Positions 1,749-14,044 of a DNA stretch of 14,718 bases are shown one piece after another. Source of the stretch: Paraspadella gotoi (taxonomy: Eukaryota > Animalia > Chaetognatha); NCBI GenBank assembly GCA_051294375.1, contig CM119267.1, positions 16,764,821 to 16,779,538 on the forward strand. The letters are read 5' to 3'. Under the pieces are notes generated by a model, which was given only the letters and a program-made list of their open reading frames with translations, was not told the origin of the DNA and searched no databases. The position numbers and the translations under genes are program-made. The stretch's first letter is position 1. Each line of letters starts with the position of its first letter.

Positions 1749-2249
1749 AACAATTATGTTTTACGTTAGGAGTATCTTATTTTTAGCAGGCATTGACAAT
1801 TGCATTTTTGTAAAAAAAAAAATTGACCTGTGTCAAACAGTTTTTCAAATGCATTGAATTGAAATTCTTATGTATTGTAGGACTACCCAGGCCCACCTGA
1901 TTACTAAAATTTAAAACCATAAATCACAAATACAGGAAGTTATGCATCATTGAAAAAAATGACCCATCAAAAATATTAACACTGATAAATATTGAAAAAA
2001 AATTTTGATAGAATATATCTTACAGAAGCTTTACAAACCCTTCTTGAGTATAAGTTGGAAAATTTTAAGAAAAAAATTTTAAAATATATTAGAGCTATGC
2101 AAGTTTTTTAAAAATTTGACCCAATTTTTAAGTGGTTTAAGATTATTTTTTGATAAAAAAATTGCTTAAATGGGCAATAGCAGCCATCCAGGCAACTTCC
2201 TATTAAAATCCTAAAGCCATTAATCCTATAAATGAAAAGTTATTCCATG

Positions 2250-2643
2250 TACAGACTTACGACATTTCTATTTTGCCGGTACTGTATCTTATTAAAGAGA
2301 TAGTGTAAATATTTTTGCAACAATTTGTTAGTTATAGACGTGATTTTGCTCAAATGGTGCGGGTGCTAGGAAAGCAGGGGATCTCCACCTCGGACGACCC
2401 GCGGTTCTCTGCGTGGAGCAGTGGTGAAACCGAAAGATAAAACCCCAGACCGAAAACATCACACCGTCTATTGGGCGGCCTGTGCAGGAGCTGGCAACCA
2501 ACCCTGCACAGCAGCATACGTGGGCAGACAGGCTAGTCTCTTGCAAATCGTTTCCAGCAACATCAAAAAACCCCTACCGTGACGCTGGCGGGGCATTACC
2601 TGTCCTCTTGTTGCTGAGCATGCGGTCAACACCGGCCATTCAT
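2250..2643 (+). repeat. Indel-rich duplicate of 2689-3088 on the other side of an N gap (probable assembly overlap)
   Basis: Both copies start tacagacttacgacatt and end caacaccggccattcat. They differ mostly by 1-3 nt indels and abut the gap at 2664-2688. Confidence 0.85.
2254..2286 (-). mobile_element. Tc1/mariner-like terminal inverted repeat with TA target dinucleotide, possibly the right end of the foldback element
   Basis: Minus strand reads TA|CAGTACCGGCAAAATAGAAATGTCG, resembling the CAGT-NNN-GGC-AAAA ends of Tc1-family TIRs. The partner end is not in the window. Confidence 0.55.
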
Positions 2644-2793
2644 CTTAATCTCTCTCTTTATTCNNNNNNNNNNNNNNNNNNNNNNNNNTACAGACTTACG
2701 ACATTCTAGGTTTCCGGTACTGTATCTTGATTAAAGGAATAGTGTGAATATTTTTGCAACAATTTGTTTAGTTATAGACGTATGTTTTGGCTC

Positions 2794-3314
2794 AAATTGG
2801 TGCGGGTGCTAGGAAAGCAGGGGATCTCCACCTCGGTGACGACCCGCGGTTCTCTGCGTGAGCAGTTGGTGAAACCGAAAGATAAAATCCCCAGACCGAA
2901 AACATCAGGAGCCGTCTATTGGGCGGCCTGTGCAGGAGCTGGCAACCAACCCTGCACAGCAGCATACGTGGGCGAGACAGGCAAGTCTCTGGCAAATCGT
3001 TTCCAGCAACATACAAAACCCTACCGTGACGCTGGCGGGCATTACCTGTCCTCTGTTGCTGAGCATGCGGTCAACACCGGCCATTCATTTAGAGAAACAG
3101 ACTCTCGTACTGTCCCATGACCCAAACTGGTTCTCAAGAGGTATTAGAGAGGCTATCTAGTATCTACATCAATGCTCTCAAGCCCTCTTTGAACCGTAAT
3201 GGAGGACGATTCGACCTCCCTCCAAGCTATGATTCGCTTATTAAGAGCGTGGTGGAGGCCCCGCCCCCACTACGACCGCACAATCCCCTATCTCCACTCA
3301 ACGAGACAGGCTGA
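2794..3314 (+). pseudogene. 5'-truncated Penelope-like retroelement ORF: end of the linker plus GIY-YIG endonuclease, two frameshifts
   Basis: Joining ORFs 2764, 2930 and 3117 gives LVKPKDKIP..SGAVYWAAC..C..AYVGETGKSLANRFQQH..SSVAEHAVNTGH..VLSHDPNWFSRGIREAIYINALKPSLNRNGGRFDLPPSY. This is the motif series of the PLE (Penelope/Poseidon-type) GIY-YIG domain. Confidence 0.9.
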
Positions 3315-6694: not shown

Positions 6695-6901
6695 TGTGGC
6701 GACGAAGGTTTCGCCACCATGGGGTCAACCCGAATTGGCCACTGTGTTTAGTGGTTGCAAAGGAAACCGGCTACTAATCTCTCTCTCTCTCTCTCTTATT
6801 TAACCGGTGCCTCTCTCATTGTAGTTAGTCTTGCACGGTCTTGTACATTGAACGTCTGTCATATACATTTTTGCCATTACATGTGATTTTGTACCACTAC
6901 A
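6695..6901 (+). repeat. Family A 5' LTR
   Basis: TGTGGCGACG...GTACCACTACA; 5' hairpin GTGGCGA/TCGCCAC; internal (CT)n. Confidence 0.9.
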
Positions 6902-6905
6902 TAAC

Positions 6906-6919
6906 TGGTGAGCCCAACG
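6906..6919 (+). promoter_or_regulatory. Primer-binding site of family A (tRNA-Trp-like, tentative)
   Basis: TGGTGAGCCCAACG begins after a 4-nt spacer following the LTR CA; TGG is complementary to tRNA CCA; resembles the Trp-type PBS TGGTGACCCCGACG. Confidence 0.75.
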
Positions 6920-7195
6920 AGAACACGCGAAAATCCTGACCAAAACTACAGTGCATAAAATCAACTGTCACGAATTAAGACTAATATATGAAACTAAGTA
7001 TGACTTGTCTATTTGTTTCCTCTGTGAGGTCTACGACGCCCAAGGACCTAAAGAAAAATCTTTCTATAATGCAGTATTAAGAATCTTGAAAGAAGACAAG
7101 GCGCCGAAGTCCCTCGTATTCAACAGCTTCGACAAACGAAGACACCAGTTTATGTTGGGGTTCATGGTGGACTAAAATCCACCAACCGTTCATCA

Positions 7196-7263
7196 GCGGC
7201 CATTGGTGCCGGAGGCAAGTCATTCGCCTCCCAACCCAAAGTCCGGGGTCTAGCCCGTGGTGT
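7196..7263 (+). promoter_or_regulatory. tRNA-derived Pol III internal promoter in the 5' LTR-B
   Basis: A-box-like TGGTGCCGGAGG (7204-7215); B-box-like GGTCTAGCCC (one T short in this copy); CTCCCAA anticodon-like loop. Confidence 0.7.
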
Positions 7264-7266
7264 CTG

Positions 7267-7342
7267 GCAAGTTAAGAGGGACGGGGCGCTTAACCCGCGC
7301 TGTAACATGGTGTTACAGCCTGATCCGAAGCTCAGGGACTGC
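7267..7342 (+). ncRNA. Twister ribozyme, type P5 (copy 1); predicted cleavage between U7291 and A7292
   Basis: Same elements as the 10911-10984 copy, with two single-base insertions (gcaagtt, cccgcgctg) that may be read errors. Confidence 0.7.
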
Positions 7343-7395
7343 TTAATTGAACGGTTCTAGTCACCTTCACATAACAATAATTACTGTCTCTTCAT

Positions 7396-7408
7396 TGGTG
7401 AGCCCGAC
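7396..7408 (+). promoter_or_regulatory. Primer-binding site of TRIM family B
   Basis: TGGTGAGCCCGAC follows LTR ...TTCA-T; its first 10 nt are identical to the family A PBS. Confidence 0.8.
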
Positions 7409-7559
7409 TTCCAACACACAGCAACAAAAACTTTAAGGCGACATGCCTCAACTCGATGCACTTTCCGACGCACAACACATCAGGCACATGCCTCAACTTG
7501 GTGACGCACTTTCCACCAACAACAACAATTCACTGAAGAGACGCAAAAGACTTCTCCCT

Positions 7560-7572
7560 AAGGAGGGGGGGA
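7560..7572 (+). promoter_or_regulatory. Polypurine tract of TRIM family B
   Basis: AAGGAGGGGGGGA directly before the TG of the 3' LTR. Confidence 0.85.
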
Positions 7573-7607
7573 TGTATGGTGGACTAAAATCCACCAACCG
7601 TTCATCA

Positions 7608-7676
7608 GCGGCCATTGGTAGCGAGGCAAGTCATTCGCCTCCCAACCCAAAAGTCCGGGGTTCTAGCCCGTGGCGC
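7608..7676 (+). promoter_or_regulatory. tRNA-derived Pol III internal promoter in the 3' LTR-B
   Basis: GCGGCCATTGGTAGCGAGG...GGTTCTAGCCC (B-box-like at 7659-7669). Confidence 0.7.
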
Positions 7677-7679
7677 CTA

Positions 7680-7755
7680 GCAGTTAAGAGGGACGGGGCG
7701 CTTAACCCGCCTGTAACACGGTAGTTACAGCCTGATCCGAAGCTCAGGAGACTGC
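7680..7755 (+). ncRNA. Twister ribozyme, type P5 (copy 2); predicted cleavage between U7703 and A7704
   Basis: GCAGTT-AAGAGG-GACGG-GGCGCT-TAA-CCC-GC-CTGTAAC(acggta)GTTACAG-CCTG(ATCCGAAGCT)CAGG-a-GACTGC. Differences from copy 3 fall in the P3 loop and a junction. Confidence 0.78.
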
Positions 7756-7808
7756 TTATATTGAACGGTTCTATCATTAACACATAACAATAATTTATGT
7801 CTCTTCAG

Positions 7809-8067
7809 GGTACATAATAACATGTAATTGGCAAAATGTAATACTGAGACAGACGTTCAAGTTGTACAAGACCGTGCAACAACTAACTCACAACTAAGGA
7901 GAAGAGGCACGCGGTCTTAAGTAAGAAAAGAGAGAGAGAAGAGAGAGAGAGAGATTTGAGAGAGAGAGATCAGGTAGCCGGTTTCGCTTTGCGACACGTA
8001 AACACAGTGATACCAATGGATCGGGGGTTGGACTCCATGGATGGCGAAAACGCTTCGTGCGGCCACA
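7809..8067 (-). repeat. Inverted, indel-rich copy of LTR-A, interrupted near its 3' end by the family B TRIM
   Basis: Reverse complement runs tgtggccgcacgaagcgttttcgcc...(CT)n...tgcacggtcttgtaca..ttgaacgtctgtc...ttatgtacc. The missing end plus spacer/PBS start (ccaaca-taaac-tggtg) lies on the minus strand at 7143-7158. Confidence 0.8.
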
Positions 8068-8221
8068 AAATAATAATTTATTTCATAAATTGAATTAGCA
8101 CAGTACTGTCGAAGACTTATTGATCTCCTCCAAAGGTGCAAACATAAATTAAAAATTTTTTCTTGTTATCTATTAGGTTCACATAAACTTGCTTCACAGA
8201 AGTCTCTTTCGCCTCATCGAC

Positions 8222-8380
8222 TATTATGTGAGACTATGACCGGGGCGAAGCGCGGATCCCTGTGCTCTATAATAATATCGCTTTCGCTCTTTGTGCGCTA
8301 CGTCGTGCGTCGTCGTCGTCTTGACTTTGACTTTGAAAGGCAGTTCGTCCGTCGTCGTCGCAGTCTGTCACGCCTTTTTG
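8222..8380 (+). mobile_element. 5' part of a second HINE/pearl-like element
   Basis: Same layout as 5815-5940: ..GGCGAAGC.. hairpin, CTTTGTG, (CGT)n, GTCACGC followed by a T-run. Confidence 0.5.
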
Positions 8381-9313
8381 CAATCATGCTTCTTAAGTGT
8401 GAATATCAATACGAGGGAGTTGAAAATTGTTATATATGGCTTCTTAATCATCAGAGAGTCTTTAAAAAATTCCATGTTTCTCATATCAAATATTCCTATT
8501 TGTTTATGTTTTATTTACAAACAAAAACCTTTAAATATATGTCTGCTTTCCTCTCCTCTCTTTCTTTTAATTATATGTCGCTGCTCTCTCTCTCTTTTGT
8601 TTCTCAGTGCACTGCTTCTTCTGGATTTTGTCCTAAAAACGAGTTCTGGCTCTGCAGGCGTCACATGCAGCGGTCCGTCCAGCTTCTTTCTCTTCTCGTC
8701 TCTGCTCTCTCTCATCTGTCTCCTCTCTCACTNNNNNNNNNNNNNNNNNNNNNNNNNGAATCGATAAACTTAGTTATTACGTTTCAATCGGAGGAAATTA
8801 AAAAAAAATTTTGTGATGTCATTTTCTTAAAAAAATCTACAATGACAAAGTCGTCTCCTTCGAATTCTCAGTTGCCGGAGGCAAATACAACAGCAGCAAT
8901 CGCGACACTGGTGATGGCGCCGCCTCCTGGATGGGTCCCGACGAAAAGAAAGGATGGCTCTACTGCAACCAATGCTTTCACAACTGAAGACGCCTCCACC
9001 ATTACAAACTTTATTTCCTTTGACGACGCATCTACCTTAACACAATGTGGAGAAAGCATAGATGCGTCATGTTCAACTGATCATGTCATTTTGGCGATTC
9101 TGCCATCTCTACTATTGATGCCGCAAATACCAACGCCACCACGCAAATGGTCATCAGTTATGATGTCACTCTTGAGGATGCGATGGAGGCCGCTATTGAC
9201 GTCCTTAACGGGGCGAGACTCTCGTCGCCGTCAATGGATGACAATCTTCACAAACACGGCTCTCACGGCAATTTGTGCTGTACGACGCCAACTCAGGATG
9301 TCAAAGCCGACGT

Positions 9314-9718
9314 TCAAATCGTCTTTGCGAGTTGCAAAGGCGGCGATCCCTTTGCCTCAGCCAGCGCCGCCTCTGCGGCTGGCACCGCCACCTTTGTGGC
9401 TTGCACCACCAAAGTTTTCCCAGCCATATCCAACTTCTCGGCCATTTCCGCCTCCTTCCCGGGTGTTTCAACCTCCTTCCAAAACGGTACCAGTTCGTCA
9501 CATGCCAGTCGTCTCGCGTAGTAGGCTGGCAGCATCGTTTCAAAAGCCAGCCAATTTTTGACAAGCCCTGACGCCACCTCTGCCTCCGCGGCTATCAATG
9601 AATCGACGTACTTACGCCGCCATTTGCGCGGTTTCACCCACAAGACATCAGCAACTGCCACCAATAAAAAAATGCCAGTGTTCCTCTGCGCCATTTCCAT
9701 TTCCACTCCCAAGACCAC
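9314..9718 (-). CDS. Possible antisense ORF (134 aa, E/K/A-rich, helical-looking) just upstream of the family A 3' LTR; function unknown, may be decayed
   Basis: GC-rich island; minus-strand translation ..ELVPFWKEVETPGKEAEMAEKLDMAGKTLVVQATKVAVPAAEAALAEAK.. looks more protein-like than the overlapping S/F/A/T-rich plus-strand frames. Confidence 0.35.
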   Translation of the reverse strand: MVLGVEMEMAQRNTGIFLLVAVADVLWVKPRKWRRKYVDSLIAAEAEVASGLVKNWLAFETMLPAYYARRLACDELVPFWKEVETPGKEAEMAEKLDMAGKTLVVQATKVAVPAAEAALAEAKGSPPLQLAKTI

Positions 9719-9748
9719 GCCCAGAAGAAAGTCCTTTGGACTTTTTCC

Positions 9749-9760
9749 GGGGGGCGGGGA
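9749..9760 (+). promoter_or_regulatory. Polypurine tract of family A
   Basis: GGGGGGCGGGGA directly before TGTGGCG. Confidence 0.8.
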
Positions 9761-9946
9761 TGTGGCGACGAAGGTTTCGCCACTATGGGGTCAACCCGAA
9801 TTGGCCACTGTTTAGTGGTCGCAAAGAAAACCGGCTCCTAATCTCTCTCTCTTACTTAACCGGTGCCTCTCTCATTGTAGTTAGTCTTGCACGGTCTTGT
9901 ACATTGAACGTCTGTCATATACATTATGTGATTATGTACCACTACA
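9761..9946 (+). repeat. Family A 3' LTR
   Basis: Direct repeat of 6695-6901 with small deletions; followed by TSD CGGT. Confidence 0.9.
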
Positions 9947-10835
9947 CGGTTTTTTTGTTTTAATAACGTCAGTATGTACCTCATCTTTTAAAACTAATAA
10001 ATAAGTTAAAAATATTCTCTTTATCAAAAATAAATGCAAGTCACAAAAAGTTACAAATTAAAAGTTGTCTTTAAAAATTATTTGATATTTTTGTAGGTGT
10101 TAAAAGCTTATTCAATAGGCTATATTTTCTGTTAATTTTAACCAATTCGATTTATTTTTGTTTAACAAATTATGATAAAAGACTGAAACTGCAACTTTTT
10201 GACTTGTTAACTTTAAAATAAATTCATAGGCAAACTATAAATGATTTAAGAAAATAAATTTACCCAGAGGTAAAAAAGATATGGAAGAACGGATTTCCAA
10301 AGTAAAAAAATCTTTTCAACTTTCCTTGGCATTCAAATCAGAAGTTGTAAGTAAAAATGGATAAAAGTGGACATAATTTTTTTTCCTAAAAGTTGCCAAA
10401 ATGGTACTCTTTTATCATTAGAAACGGGTAGAGATATTCCTAGCCAATCCTTCGTTCGGCCCAATTTGTGTTATGACACAAAGTTAATCAACATTAAGTA
10501 ACAACTGAACAATAGTGGAAAGAGTCGTTTTTTCCTAAATGCAACGTTTGTATGCGGAACCCAAACAAATCCCCAAAAAAAATCAAAGATTTTGTTGAAG
10601 TGAAAGACAATGTATCATCACATTATGCAGCAGCAACTAAGCCAAATTTATTTTATAGGGGATCAATCTTTTTCACTGCTTGCCAAGGACCATTTTTTGC
10701 CCCAAATCTGATAAAAAACATTGTCAGAAATATAATATTAATAATAATGTGAATAGTCCTCTTGATCAAAAAAAAGTGAAAACAGTTGGAGTATTAGTAT
10801 ATTATGGTGGACTAAAATCCACCAACCGTTCATCA

Positions 10836-10907
10836 GCGGCCATTGGTGCCGGAGGCAAGTCATTCTCCTCCCAACCCAAAGGTCCGGGGTTCTAGCCCGG
10901 TGGTCGT
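10836..10907 (+). promoter_or_regulatory. tRNA-like module (Gly-CCC-like, tentative) in the solo LTR
   Basis: Acceptor-like stem GCGGCCA/TGGTCGT; D-like GGTG/CATT with A box at 10844-10855; CTCCCAA loop; CCGGG/CCCGG arm with B box GGTTCTAGCCC (10888-10898). The anticodon stem is broken, so it is not a functional tRNA. Confidence 0.75.
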
Positions 10908-10910
10908 CTG

Positions 10911-10984
10911 GCAGTTAAGAGGGACGGGGCGCTTAACCCGCCTGTAACATGGTGTTACAGCCTGATCCGAAGCTCAGGGACTGC
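10911..10984 (+). ncRNA. Twister ribozyme, type P5 (copy 3, cleanest); predicted cleavage between U10934 and A10935
   Basis: P5 GCAGTT/GACTGC; GACGG (10923-10927) in place of consensus GAGGG; vestigial P1 GGCGCT; UAA; P2 CCC/G(A)GG; T2 GC-GC; P3 CTGTAAC/GTTACAG; P4 CCTG/CAGG with loop AUCCGAAGCU (typical twister loop GUCCCAAGCC). Confidence 0.82.
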
Positions 10985-11219
10985 TTATATTGAACGATTC
11001 TGTCATTAACACTTATCAATAATTACTGTCTCTTCAATGTATTAAATAATTTTATGCAGTTCAAAAATAATCTTTTTATTCAGTCTTAGGGAGGTCATAT
11101 TAAATATTAAAACTTATTTACCGGCCAAAAAATATTTTTAACAATGAAATTAACTAACATTTCCAAACCGCGACAATATTTTTTTCATCATGGTACCTTA
11201 ATTTTTAGCTTCAATATCA

Positions 11220-11433
11220 TTGTGATTAAACTTTATTTTGTTGTGTTTTTAGATATTTGAAATTAAAGACAAAGTCTTGATACAGCAACGATTTTATTTT
11301 TATTGTTCAGACAAGTTTCGGCTTTCAATCAAGCCGAAAAGCACTGATGAAGGCTTGAATGAAAGCCGAAACTTGTCTGAACAATAAAAATAAAATCGTT
11401 GCTGTATCAAGACTTCGTCTTTAATTTCAAATA
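11220..11433. mobile_element. Short Penelope-like insertion: inverted pseudo-LTR pair with a 34-nt extension and a target duplication
   Basis: 82-bp near-perfect inverted arms at 11254-11335 and 11352-11433; flanking direct repeat TAGCTTCAATATCA (11206-11219, 11432-11445); hammerhead core at the centre followed by AATAAA. Confidence 0.75.
11342..11379 (+). ncRNA. Minimal type I hammerhead ribozyme core (stem I truncated)
   Basis: CTGATGA-A-GGCTT(gaatga)AAGCC-GAAAC-TT-GTC; cleavage would follow C11377. Only 2 bp of stem I (CA/TG) remain. Confidence 0.7.
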
Positions 11434-11606
11434 GCTTCAATATCAAAATTCGCCTCGATAGTTCCAACTCTAAATGTAGAATTTCATGAAATTCGATCGG
11501 GTAGTTTGGTGGGAACAGATTCTGGTGACAAAAAAGGGGTACCTCATTTTATAATATGAAGCTTTCTGTACTATATTTAATGACTAAAAGAAAACAACTC
11601 TTGCAG

Positions 11607-12112
11607 AATCGAGCAACGCTATTGCAATTGGCAGATCGAAGATTCCATGATGGGCAACATTGTTTCAATTGTCGCCTCGACGACCAGCTTGGCTAAATTC
11701 GCCGCAATTAACAGAACCAAATTCATTTCCAACAAAGCTCCATCAAATTATATTCAGTACATTTCTAAGGCCTTTGTGCTTATAATTGTAAATTTTCTGG
11801 GTGTTGCTCAAGGGGTTTTCGGAATGTCACTCTGCTTATACCTTATATATGTCAACAGTTTGTTGAACTGCTTGTCTCTTGTATTCATCACCCCAACTGC
11901 CCTGCTTCGAGTCTTTAGCTTGAGTGATATAAGGAGGCTTCTTCAAAAATTAATGAAAAATACTCTGAACCATAATTTGGCGATCGACAACGAAATATTT
12001 TTCCTGATCATGACTGTGCTTTGGAATGTATGGATTTTTTCATTTTTTTGCCTTTTACAAAAAAACGTTATTCTGAGCAGATTTAACAATCCCTTAATAA
12101 GAGAAGAAAAAG
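11607..12112 (+). CDS. Probable internal exon of a multi-pass membrane protein gene
   Basis: Acceptor ctcttgcAG at 11605-11606, open frame with hydrophobic stretches, donor AAG|GTTTGA at 12112/12113 in phase 1, matching the next exon. Confidence 0.5.
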
Positions 12113-12662
12113 GTTTGATTCATTATTAAACTTATCTAATATCCTTTGCTGTGAAGGGAGAGACATAAAATGGTTCAAACAAAATAGAATTAAAAAATAG
12201 GTCAAATGATAAGCATTCCTTTTTCACTACTGAAGTTGATTAAATTTAATAAACTGTAAAATAAGTAGGGAATATTTAAAGGGATTCTCAAATATGAAAT
12301 CGGGTCTCTTTTCCAAAAGTTCTTCATTCATTAACTTAACTTCATCTCATAAATTCATTATAGTCAAGTTAGATCACCAGGAATTTGAAGTTTTTATCAT
12401 TAATTGCTGTGGTTTTTTTTTCTAATCAATTAGAGGAAATCACATCTGACATCTCTCTTTTTAATATGGGCAAATTAAAGTTAAATTCATAAAAGTAAAG
12501 ATTATTTTTATAGGGAGAATAGTATGAAATCAAAACGCAGAAATTCAAAGGGTAAATATATTTATAAATTTAACTTTCTCCTTAATGATTTCTTTTAAAG
12601 TTTAAAAGTAATCTGACCAAAGAGCAATTTATTGTGCTGAGTTTTCTTTCTTTTTTTTGCAG

Positions 12663-14044
12663 AAGATGATTACATTCCTTGGGGTCTGGCCAATCTGCAT
12701 ACTAATCAAACTCCTCGAGTGACAATATTCCTGGATATGAATAGTGATGGCTACTTGAAATATAGAAAATTTAATGTTGAAGGAAAGGTCTTTGGTAAAA
12801 CAAAATGGTCTTCTTTCAGTTTTTTAAAGCAAAAGCACATTGTTGAAACCTTAGATGGTGAAAGTTCTGAATTGCGCCGTTTTCAAAGTATAAGACTGGG
12901 CAACTACAAAATTCTGAATCCTGGATATGACATAAAGCTACTCCTGGTTTTTCTAGATATTTTTCTTGGCTTTTGCTACATCCTTGTATTTGGAATTATG
13001 AAAAAGGCTTTGATAAAATTAATGAAATCATTGATACCAATGATAATTACTGCTATAATAATCTATTTGAATATTTTCTTTTTCGTTGTTCACATTAATA
13101 TTAATCAATTTAACAATTTAGATGTGTCCAATAAATACCTACCATTTTTACTGATGAAAAAATACAGGCGTATAGTTTTAACCAATGATAAAGTGATTTA
13201 TGCACATTTTCATTCATTAATAACCCTTACAAAATTTTCAAACCTTTTGGCAAATTATTGGATTGCTGCAGCAACAACTGCATTCATAATAATTTTGCAG
13301 AGTGTAGCCACAAAAAAGCATAATCACCAAATATTCTTAGTTTTTATGGGAGCGCTATCTATTTCTTTTCCGGTTGCAACAATTTCTTGGTGGAATAGGT
13401 TGGACCAAACTGCTTTTGATGGCTTTGAAGACATTTGCTCAAAATCATATGTTCAGTTCAGTTCAGATTTTAGTTTTATTAAAGTATACAGGCCTTTAAT
13501 TATCAGATTGATGACCTTTTTTTTTTTCAAGGAAAACTTTTTCTTTCTTACTTTGCTTTCATTTCTGCCCATGTTGAAGGTTGTGTTTTTTGCTTTAACA
13601 TCTCTTTCTTCGAAGAGAAAGGTTGCCAAATTCATGATGGGATCCTTGATCGCTTTGATGGTAATTCCTGTTTATTTCTACACACAAGAATACGGACAAA
13701 TCAACTTGACCCAGAGCCTCATTACAGAAAACATTCATCTGCAAAAGCATTTGTTATATTTTAACAAAATTGGTAAAATAGGAGGGACCATTAACAGAGG
13801 ATGTGAACATTTGGCCCCATCATTCTTGTCGATTATGTCATTTTTTGAAATTTTATCAGATTGTTATGGATTTAAATTATACAATTTGACCAATAAGCGT
13901 ATGGAGGCAATATGGAATAACTTTGAAGAAGTCAAAGATGCAACAAAAAGGGGAATCAATCTTCTATTTTCAAGCAACTCAGCACTCTGGAATTTCCTGT
14001 TGTTAATATTTCCAGCCACTTGGGTGCTGCTTAATTTTCAATAA
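12663..14044 (+). CDS. Probable terminal exon (~460 codons) of a multi-pass membrane protein, possibly chemoreceptor-like
   Basis: Strong polypyrimidine acceptor ttttctttctttttttttgcAG (ends 12662); frame open from (E)DDYIPWGLAN to TAA at 14042-14044 in very AT-rich DNA; about 7 hydrophobic segments. Confidence 0.75.

Follow-up and report, generated by a model that had tools for sequence, protein, structure and literature searches.

Plant LTR retrozymes are non-autonomous retrotransposons with a self-cleaving motif in each long terminal repeat (LTR), a primer binding site (PBS), a polypurine tract (PPT), a 4-bp target site duplication (TSD) and a presumed Gypsy helper, and the two cut sites of a transcript define its unit RNA (PMC4918200, PMC7761336). 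Their motifs are type III hammerheads, their cleavage and their circles of ~600-1000 nt have been demonstrated, and the accessible parts of the two papers describe them without a tRNA-derived head. Helenus (TRIMp3) elements are miniature LTR retrotransposons (TRIMs) of less than 1 kb, which contain a tRNA-derived sequence in each LTR, a PBS and a PPT, lack coding capacity and leave many solo LTRs (PMC10886601). Their TSD is 4 bp in animal families or else 5 bp, the animal 4-bp TSD being tied by Kojima to Gypsy helpers, and their motif consists of box A (TRGCY...YGG) and box B (GGTTC). Twister ribozymes are never mentioned in the accessible text of PMC10886601.

Two other retroelement systems are related through their ribozymes. 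Amphibian non-LTR retrozymes use type I hammerheads, in which a vestigial stem (1 bp plus a palindromic tetraloop) lies beside the cut site, and the repeated unit supplies two copies per transcript; according to the accessible part of PMC7229834, they form tandem arrays that lack LTR, PBS and PPT. Perere-3 of Schistosoma mansoni, which is autonomous and non-LTR, has T-variant twisters that are active with a flawed P1; each element has a single one, in type-P1 order, at its 5′ end (PMC8501958).

We analysed a 14,718-nt stretch of DNA from the chaetognath Paraspadella gotoi, referred to as the window below. An element in it shares the general plan of plant LTR retrozymes, from a candidate self-cleaving motif per LTR to the 4-bp TSD, the presumed Gypsy helper and two cut sites that would define a unit RNA. 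It differs from them by a twister-like instead of a hammerhead motif and by a tRNA-derived head, and its cleavage and circle are predicted from sequence. With Helenus it shares size, tRNA-derived LTR sequence, PBS, PPT, lack of coding, the 4-bp TSD and many solo LTRs, and on this layout it is assigned to the Helenus type; its twister-like domain and its weaker box A set it apart. It also resembles the amphibian hammerheads in the vestigial stem and the two copies per transcript, ribozyme class aside, and Perere-3 in the flawed P1 of a retroelement motif.

Anatomy, neighbors and abundance of the element

The window contains three copies of a 233-237-nt repeat, two of which enclose a 178-nt spacer while the third stands alone. 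Positions 7162-7807 almost certainly are a 646-nt non-coding TRIM with the following parts.

7158-7161 (no strand): left TSD, 4 bp, same letters as 7808-7811
7162-7394 (+): 5′ LTR, 233 nt
7165-7184 (+): LTR-start hairpin, 7 bp, with counterparts at 7577-7596 and 10805-10824
7196-7264 (+): 5′-LTR head derived from tRNA-Gly(CCC), with a 1-nt gap in box B within a noisy stretch; box B is intact in public contigs
7395-7572 (+): internal region, 178 nt, non-coding, with an imperfect internal repeat
7396-7408 (+): PBS-like sequence with a TGG motif
7560-7572 (+): PPT directly before the 3′ LTR
7573-7807 (+): 3′ LTR, 235 nt, TG...CA
7608-7678 (+): 3′-LTR head derived from tRNA-Gly(CCC), with its box B at 7659-7669
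7808-7811 (no strand): right TSD, 4 bp
10800-11036 (+): solo LTR, 237 nt, the cleanest of the three copies
10836-10908 (+): solo-LTR head derived from a tRNA, with its box B at 10888-10898

The original prediction, made from the letters of the window, had described an LTR-PBS-178 bp-PPT-LTR layout with a 5′ hairpin in each LTR and no credible coding capacity. All of this is borne out. The 7-bp hairpin was located in all three copies, and the only reading frames in the ORF list that overlap the element are chance frames of <100 aa. The left end had been put at 7160 and is moved here to 7162. The target of the element is a reverse-oriented LTR of another element (element B below), and this host LTR is co-linear after removal of one 4-bp TSD, which fixes both the TSD and the left end. 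The third copy at 10800, predicted as a solo LTR, is real, but its flanks (of 10800-11036) have no matching TSD, so that a TSD is found in one of two insertions.

An alignment of the two LTRs has 219 identical positions, 6 mismatches and 18 columns with gaps. Their small differences are partly assembly error, because insertions abound in 7140-8066 and public contigs contradict the window copies at several single-base indels. In the internal region, 13 of the first 14 letters agree with the internal starts of two wasp Helenus families.

Element B is a 3.25-kb LTR element at 6695-9946 (+) with LTRs at 6695-6901 and 9761-9946 (TG...CA), a 4-bp TSD, a purine tract before the 3′ LTR and an assembly gap inside. 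Its PBS-like start (6906-6915) has the same 10 nt as the first 10 of the PBS-like sequence of the twister element, and since the two elements also share the 4-bp duplication length, both may use one helper lineage. A third element-B LTR at 7153-8066 (-), with no clear TSD of its own, lies inside the internal region of B and was the site into which the twister element inserted, making three nested insertions. In six of the eight window frames scanned by Pfam, near element B and elsewhere, gag/pol was not found, and the remaining two gave only a sub-threshold GIY-YIG match, in one of them.

Other parts of the window were also noted. At 2240-3090 (+), two tandem repeats of ~445 nt with a sub-threshold GIY-YIG match are likely Penelope-like fragments, and each contains by eye a hammerhead-like stretch (~2386-2432 and ~2829-2880) with no Rfam match. 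Near-perfect inverted repeats that look MITE-like occur at 549-1167 (294-nt arms) and 11251-11436 (85-nt arms), where Rfam miRNA matches are sub-threshold, and a further inverted element spans ~43-1763. The region 11584-14044 (+) has hydrophobic frames of 181 and 467 codons with no Pfam match, possibly a host membrane-protein gene.

For the LTR head, the earlier claim of tRNA-like A and B boxes held in part. ARAGORN and Rfam call no tRNA in the window at default settings, and relaxed ARAGORN reports a tRNA-Gly(CCC) at 7607-7679 as one of 17 calls in the window at that threshold. By eye, an acceptor-like stem of 7 bp, a T-like arm of 5 bp and a box B at tRNA spacing are present. The anticodon-to-box-B stretch of the window also supplied a 19-letter pattern for an independent search of genome and viral loci, and this pattern falls in tRNA-Gly(CCC) genes in 26 of 33 prokaryote loci and in the single viral locus. 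Box B is good (GGTTC) in public contigs and in two of the three copies of the window. A weak box A has YGG and lacks TRGCY, and the anticodon stem has decayed. Judged by these likenesses, the head is derived from tRNA-Gly(CCC).

Parts of the stretch are present in ten public runs from four studies, none of them listed as an RNA run, and in the four runs compared, 3370, 13440, 927 and 2 family records fit the stretch. In run X2, unrelated sequence borders the LTR start in 97 and 92 contigs and the LTR end in 63, with low flank agreement (0.42-0.45) at the LTR termini. Many insertions therefore share fixed termini, a behavior that is LTR-like and unlike that of a SINE. In all, the public runs contain thousands of contigs of the family, with fixed termini.

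Summed contig depth relative to single-locus contigs suggests ~10^4 LTRs and ~10^3 internal parts, to an order of magnitude only because depth is not copy number. The family is thus suggested to have thousands of copies, with LTRs in excess of internal parts. Two contigs from a second organism also cover the LTR end and internal start. Among viral, genome and metagenome contigs, no family copy was found, and the 38 loci that matched a looser pattern are unrelated and due to chance. Three contigs of run X2 join 7394 to 7574 with the internal part missing, and could be head-to-tail LTR dimers.

A twister-like domain in each LTR

Downstream of the tRNA-derived head, each LTR contains a domain with the parts of a type-P5 twister.

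7266-7343 (+): twister-like domain of the 5′ LTR, type-P5 order, predicted cut 7291/7292
7285-7290 (+): self-complementary 6-mer replacing P1 in the 5′ LTR
7679-7756 (+): twister-like domain of the 3′ LTR, predicted cut 7703/7704, 6-mer at 7697-7702
10910-10985 (+): twister-like domain of the solo LTR, predicted cut 10934/10935
10910-16/10979-85 (+): P5 of the solo LTR
10921-22/10937-38 (+): P2 of the solo LTR
10942-60 (+): P3 of the solo LTR
10961-65/10974-78 (+): P4 of the solo LTR
10925-27/10967-69 (+): pseudoknot T1 of the solo LTR
10940-41/10972-73 (+): pseudoknot T2 of the solo LTR
10923 (+): general-base G of the solo LTR
10928-33 (+): 6-mer of the solo LTR

The order in each LTR is P5 (7 bp), P2, the general-base GA, T1 CGG, the linker, UAA, P2, GC, P3 (8 bp), and P4 (5 bp) with the loop U-CCG-AAGC. 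The conserved core, consisting of the NAA cut site, the general-base GA, U-NNN-AAGC in L4 and GC of T2, is complete in all three copies. By pairing potential, the pseudoknots are T1 of 3 bp (CGG/CCG) and T2 of 2 bp (GC/GC). Type-P5 twisters (RF02684; phage examples L001-L111) have the same part order, GA, UAA, T2 GC and U-NNN-AAGC, as well as a 3-bp T1, P3 and P4, while the LTR motif differs by a 6-nt P1 linker, an A-U closing pair and a 2-pair P2. Within the P4/L4 block, three letters differ from the phage twisters, and pairing is kept at all three: T1 is CCG/CGG against CCC/GGG in phages, and the P4-closing pair is A-U against G-C.

A core descriptor, relaxed after sight of the LTR motif, recovers 42 of 48 phage loci; P3, the 7-bp P5 and the linker symmetry stood outside it. 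In the window it matches the three LTR copies only. No match arises in 20,000 dinucleotide-shuffled LTRs or in 100 window shuffles, and P2 and P4 do not occur together in any of 38 unrelated metagenome loci chosen for the same core letters. Of the 5 window matches to a model that represents the 3′ half of 13 phage twisters, the three LTRs rank first with 12.6, 12.3 and 8.2 bits, which are weak scores (E 0.03-0.4), and one of the 38 control loci likewise reached 12.3 bits. An Rfam twister-P5 match had been suggested as a check. The Rfam twister models gave no match in the window or the solo LTR, though the same tool recognised 16/20 and 18/20 phage loci in control sets (20 submitted out of 48 and 20 out of 63 loci). 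The Rfam scan of the window and the solo LTR also found no hammerhead in the LTRs.

Four departures from canonical twisters were found: the P1 hairpin is absent, P2 has 2 bp, A-U replaces a near-invariant G-C, and a hairpin competes with the fold. The P1 segment is 6 nt long in the LTR motif versus 14-30 nt in 70 of the 71 phage motifs whose P2 strand has 3 nt. In the window copies, P2 consists of 2 Watson-Crick pairs plus a mismatch or bulge. P2 strands of 3 nt are frequent among natural twisters, and at least 3 pairs form in 65 of those 71 phage motifs. The A-U version of the P4-closing pair was seen in one viral match, which has no Rfam support. With pseudoknots left out of the calculation, the competing hairpin exceeds the monomer twister scaffold in stability by 7.7 kcal/mol.

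Published work bears on these departures. One paper calls the P4-closing G-C pair essentially invariant, suggests that the length of P2 matters, and also reports tolerance of P1 and P2 flaws (PMC5408937). A large-scale assay found flaws in P1, P2 and most of P4 to be tolerated, P4 position 4 excepted (PMC11662667). One family variant, seen in three runs from two studies with its letters from one run, has a fully paired P2 (GAG/CTC) and an unchanged 6-mer. It is a single covarying case, and this copy carries an upstream deletion and one changed T1 base, whose partner is out of view.

The type-P5 twister that the original prediction saw in each LTR thus stands as far as the core is concerned, being in P5 order in 3/3 copies beyond chance, and does not stand as a regular member of the class, given the missing Rfam match and the four departures. 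By these features, the LTR motif is not a canonical P5 twister. We regard twister ancestry of the LTR domain as very probable.

Other readings of the same letters were rejected. The most obvious register takes GAGGG for the catalytic strand and leaves P2 with no pairs and T1 with a G-G clash; the reading given above lies one register further. In a type-P1 reading downstream of P4, P2 would overlap P4. HDV-like, pistol, hatchet and twister-sister readings lack core nucleotides, as judged by eye against consensus features.

Two side observations concern repetition of twister parts. The sequence that surrounds the general-base G and the cut site (10920-10935) reappears, shortened, directly after P4 (10976-10987, +), about one ribozyme length downstream; this may be a relic of a duplication through which a type-P1 twister was permuted to the P5 order, or may be chance. 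On several phage contigs (L053, L091, L096, L097, L099, L105 and L106), 2-5 twisters of type P5 lie within 0.4-1.5 kb, and P2 has 3 bp in many of them.

Proposed pairing of the two LTRs and other readings

The two LTRs of one element could build the ribozyme jointly, as the self-complementary remnant of P1 points to a two-LTR, dimeric form. In all three copies the linker can form a one-pair stem with a palindromic tetraloop, which 96 of the 4096 hexamers would do equally well. Axolotl hammerheads that have a 1-bp stem and a palindromic tetraloop are poor at cutting as monomers and efficient as dimers, and their product is closed into a circle by RtcB (PMC7229834).

In the reading that we favor, at a probability of roughly 0.45, the two LTRs would pair into a double twister. 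Transcription by Pol III from the tRNA-derived head is likely, again as a prediction from sequence. The 6-mers of the 5′ and 3′ LTRs in one transcript would pair into a 6-bp P1 in a nested arrangement, and the double twister would cut at both predicted U/AA sites, which lie 412 nt apart, excising a 412-nt RNA. This RNA would likely be circularised and then copied by a Gypsy-type helper. An RNA cut at both sites has no terminal repeat, so circularisation would be needed to rebuild two LTRs; a circular step has been proposed for plant LTR retrozymes (PMC4918200, PMC7761336). In a stricter form, the element would be a Pol III-driven, non-plant LTR retrozyme with an obligate double twister, such that solo LTRs stay uncut and full elements release the circularised and copied 412-nt RNA. 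That form we consider possible rather than probable.

Predicted energies are mixed. The double form has -54.5 kcal/mol versus -42.8 kcal/mol for two monomer twister scaffolds, a gain of 11.7 kcal/mol. Two inactive monomer folds have -58.2 kcal/mol, 3.7 kcal/mol below the double form with T1 and T2 uncounted, and the cofold minimum is a different dimer at -69.4 kcal/mol. The pairing probability between the two 6-mers is ~3e-5 in the folded window element, and the 412-nt circle folds modestly (z of -1.8).

It is also conceivable, although unlikely, that the twister is a dead passenger and that the element moves as an ordinary Helenus. A tRNA-headed SINE with a ribozyme-derived segment of an RTE-type or Penelope-type element would have entered the LTR of a TRIM. 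Kojima proposes that Helenus originated by SINE insertion (PMC10886601), twisters head RTE-clade elements (PMC8501958, PMC7761336), and P3 opens and closes, by eye, like the Schistosoma examples of PMC8501958. The reading would also account for the four departures and for an inactive fold being predicted as most stable, and a young, uniform family would retain a dead motif unchanged. What it leaves unaccounted for is that the catalytic positions and both pseudoknots are all intact, that both paired-core substitutions keep pairing, and that the variant restores the full P2, as decay would break pairs more often.

Rather less probable than a dead passenger is a slow monomer twister that stands in for a terminator and makes no circle. 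Pol III would start in the 5′ LTR, and those transcripts that are cut only in the 3′ LTR would keep a terminal repeat of ~100 nt and enter the ordinary LTR route. Cassandra likewise starts and ends inside the small-RNA part of its two LTRs (PMC10886601), and P1 has been reported dispensable in vitro (PMC11662667, PMC5408937). The competing hairpin could tune the cleavage rate. T4 runs, as terminators, are absent from the element, an absence that is not significant for its composition (2672 of 5000 shuffles). However, identical ribozymes would have to act differently in the two LTRs or most transcripts would be wasted, and the self-complementarity of the P1 remnant, unchanged in the variant copy, would go unexplained.

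Finally, that the twister likeness arose by chance in a merely structured LTR segment is very improbable, since the missing Rfam match, the unremarkable folding z-scores of the domains (-1.5, -0.8 and -0.6) and the after-the-fact descriptor are set against the shuffled LTRs and windows, none of which match, and against an 8-bp P3, a 7-bp P5 and a palindromic linker that all lie outside the descriptor.

Novelty and meaning

No LTR element that joins a tRNA promoter to a twister was known to the original prediction, and the literature search agrees. In the literature searched, which was full-text with few subscription papers, neither an LTR element carrying a twister nor a ribozyme-bearing Helenus came to light, and no natural twister that depends on dimers was described. 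In the accessible part of the Kojima 2024 supplement, where line breaks can hide matches, none of the marker strings of the element occurs, and twister-loop strings are limited to a single stray one in an internal part. Truncated yet active twisters at RTE 5′ ends are mentioned as unpublished work in PMC7761336. Each part of the element is known, and the combination together with the proposed double twister appears new as far as the literature was searched. About 2,600 twisters were tested in the CHiTA study, and similar motifs may be among them.

If the double-twister reading is true, the element would be the first twister-based LTR element and its ribozyme the first natural dimer-dependent twister found described. 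In nature, it would parallel the tandem-twister systems that have been engineered to express circular RNA. As Rfam misses such a twister, more may hide in repeats.

The reading would also carry LTR retrozymes past plants and past hammerheads. A TRIM with a Pol III promoter faces the problem that transcription starts inside the LTR, yet a defined 3′ end and two LTRs are required. A ribozyme in the LTR would solve this problem, uniting TRIMp3 elements and retrozymes, which have so far been described apart. A twister that needs two copies would act as a built-in sensor of full-length transcripts, and would be a new structural mode of the twister class.
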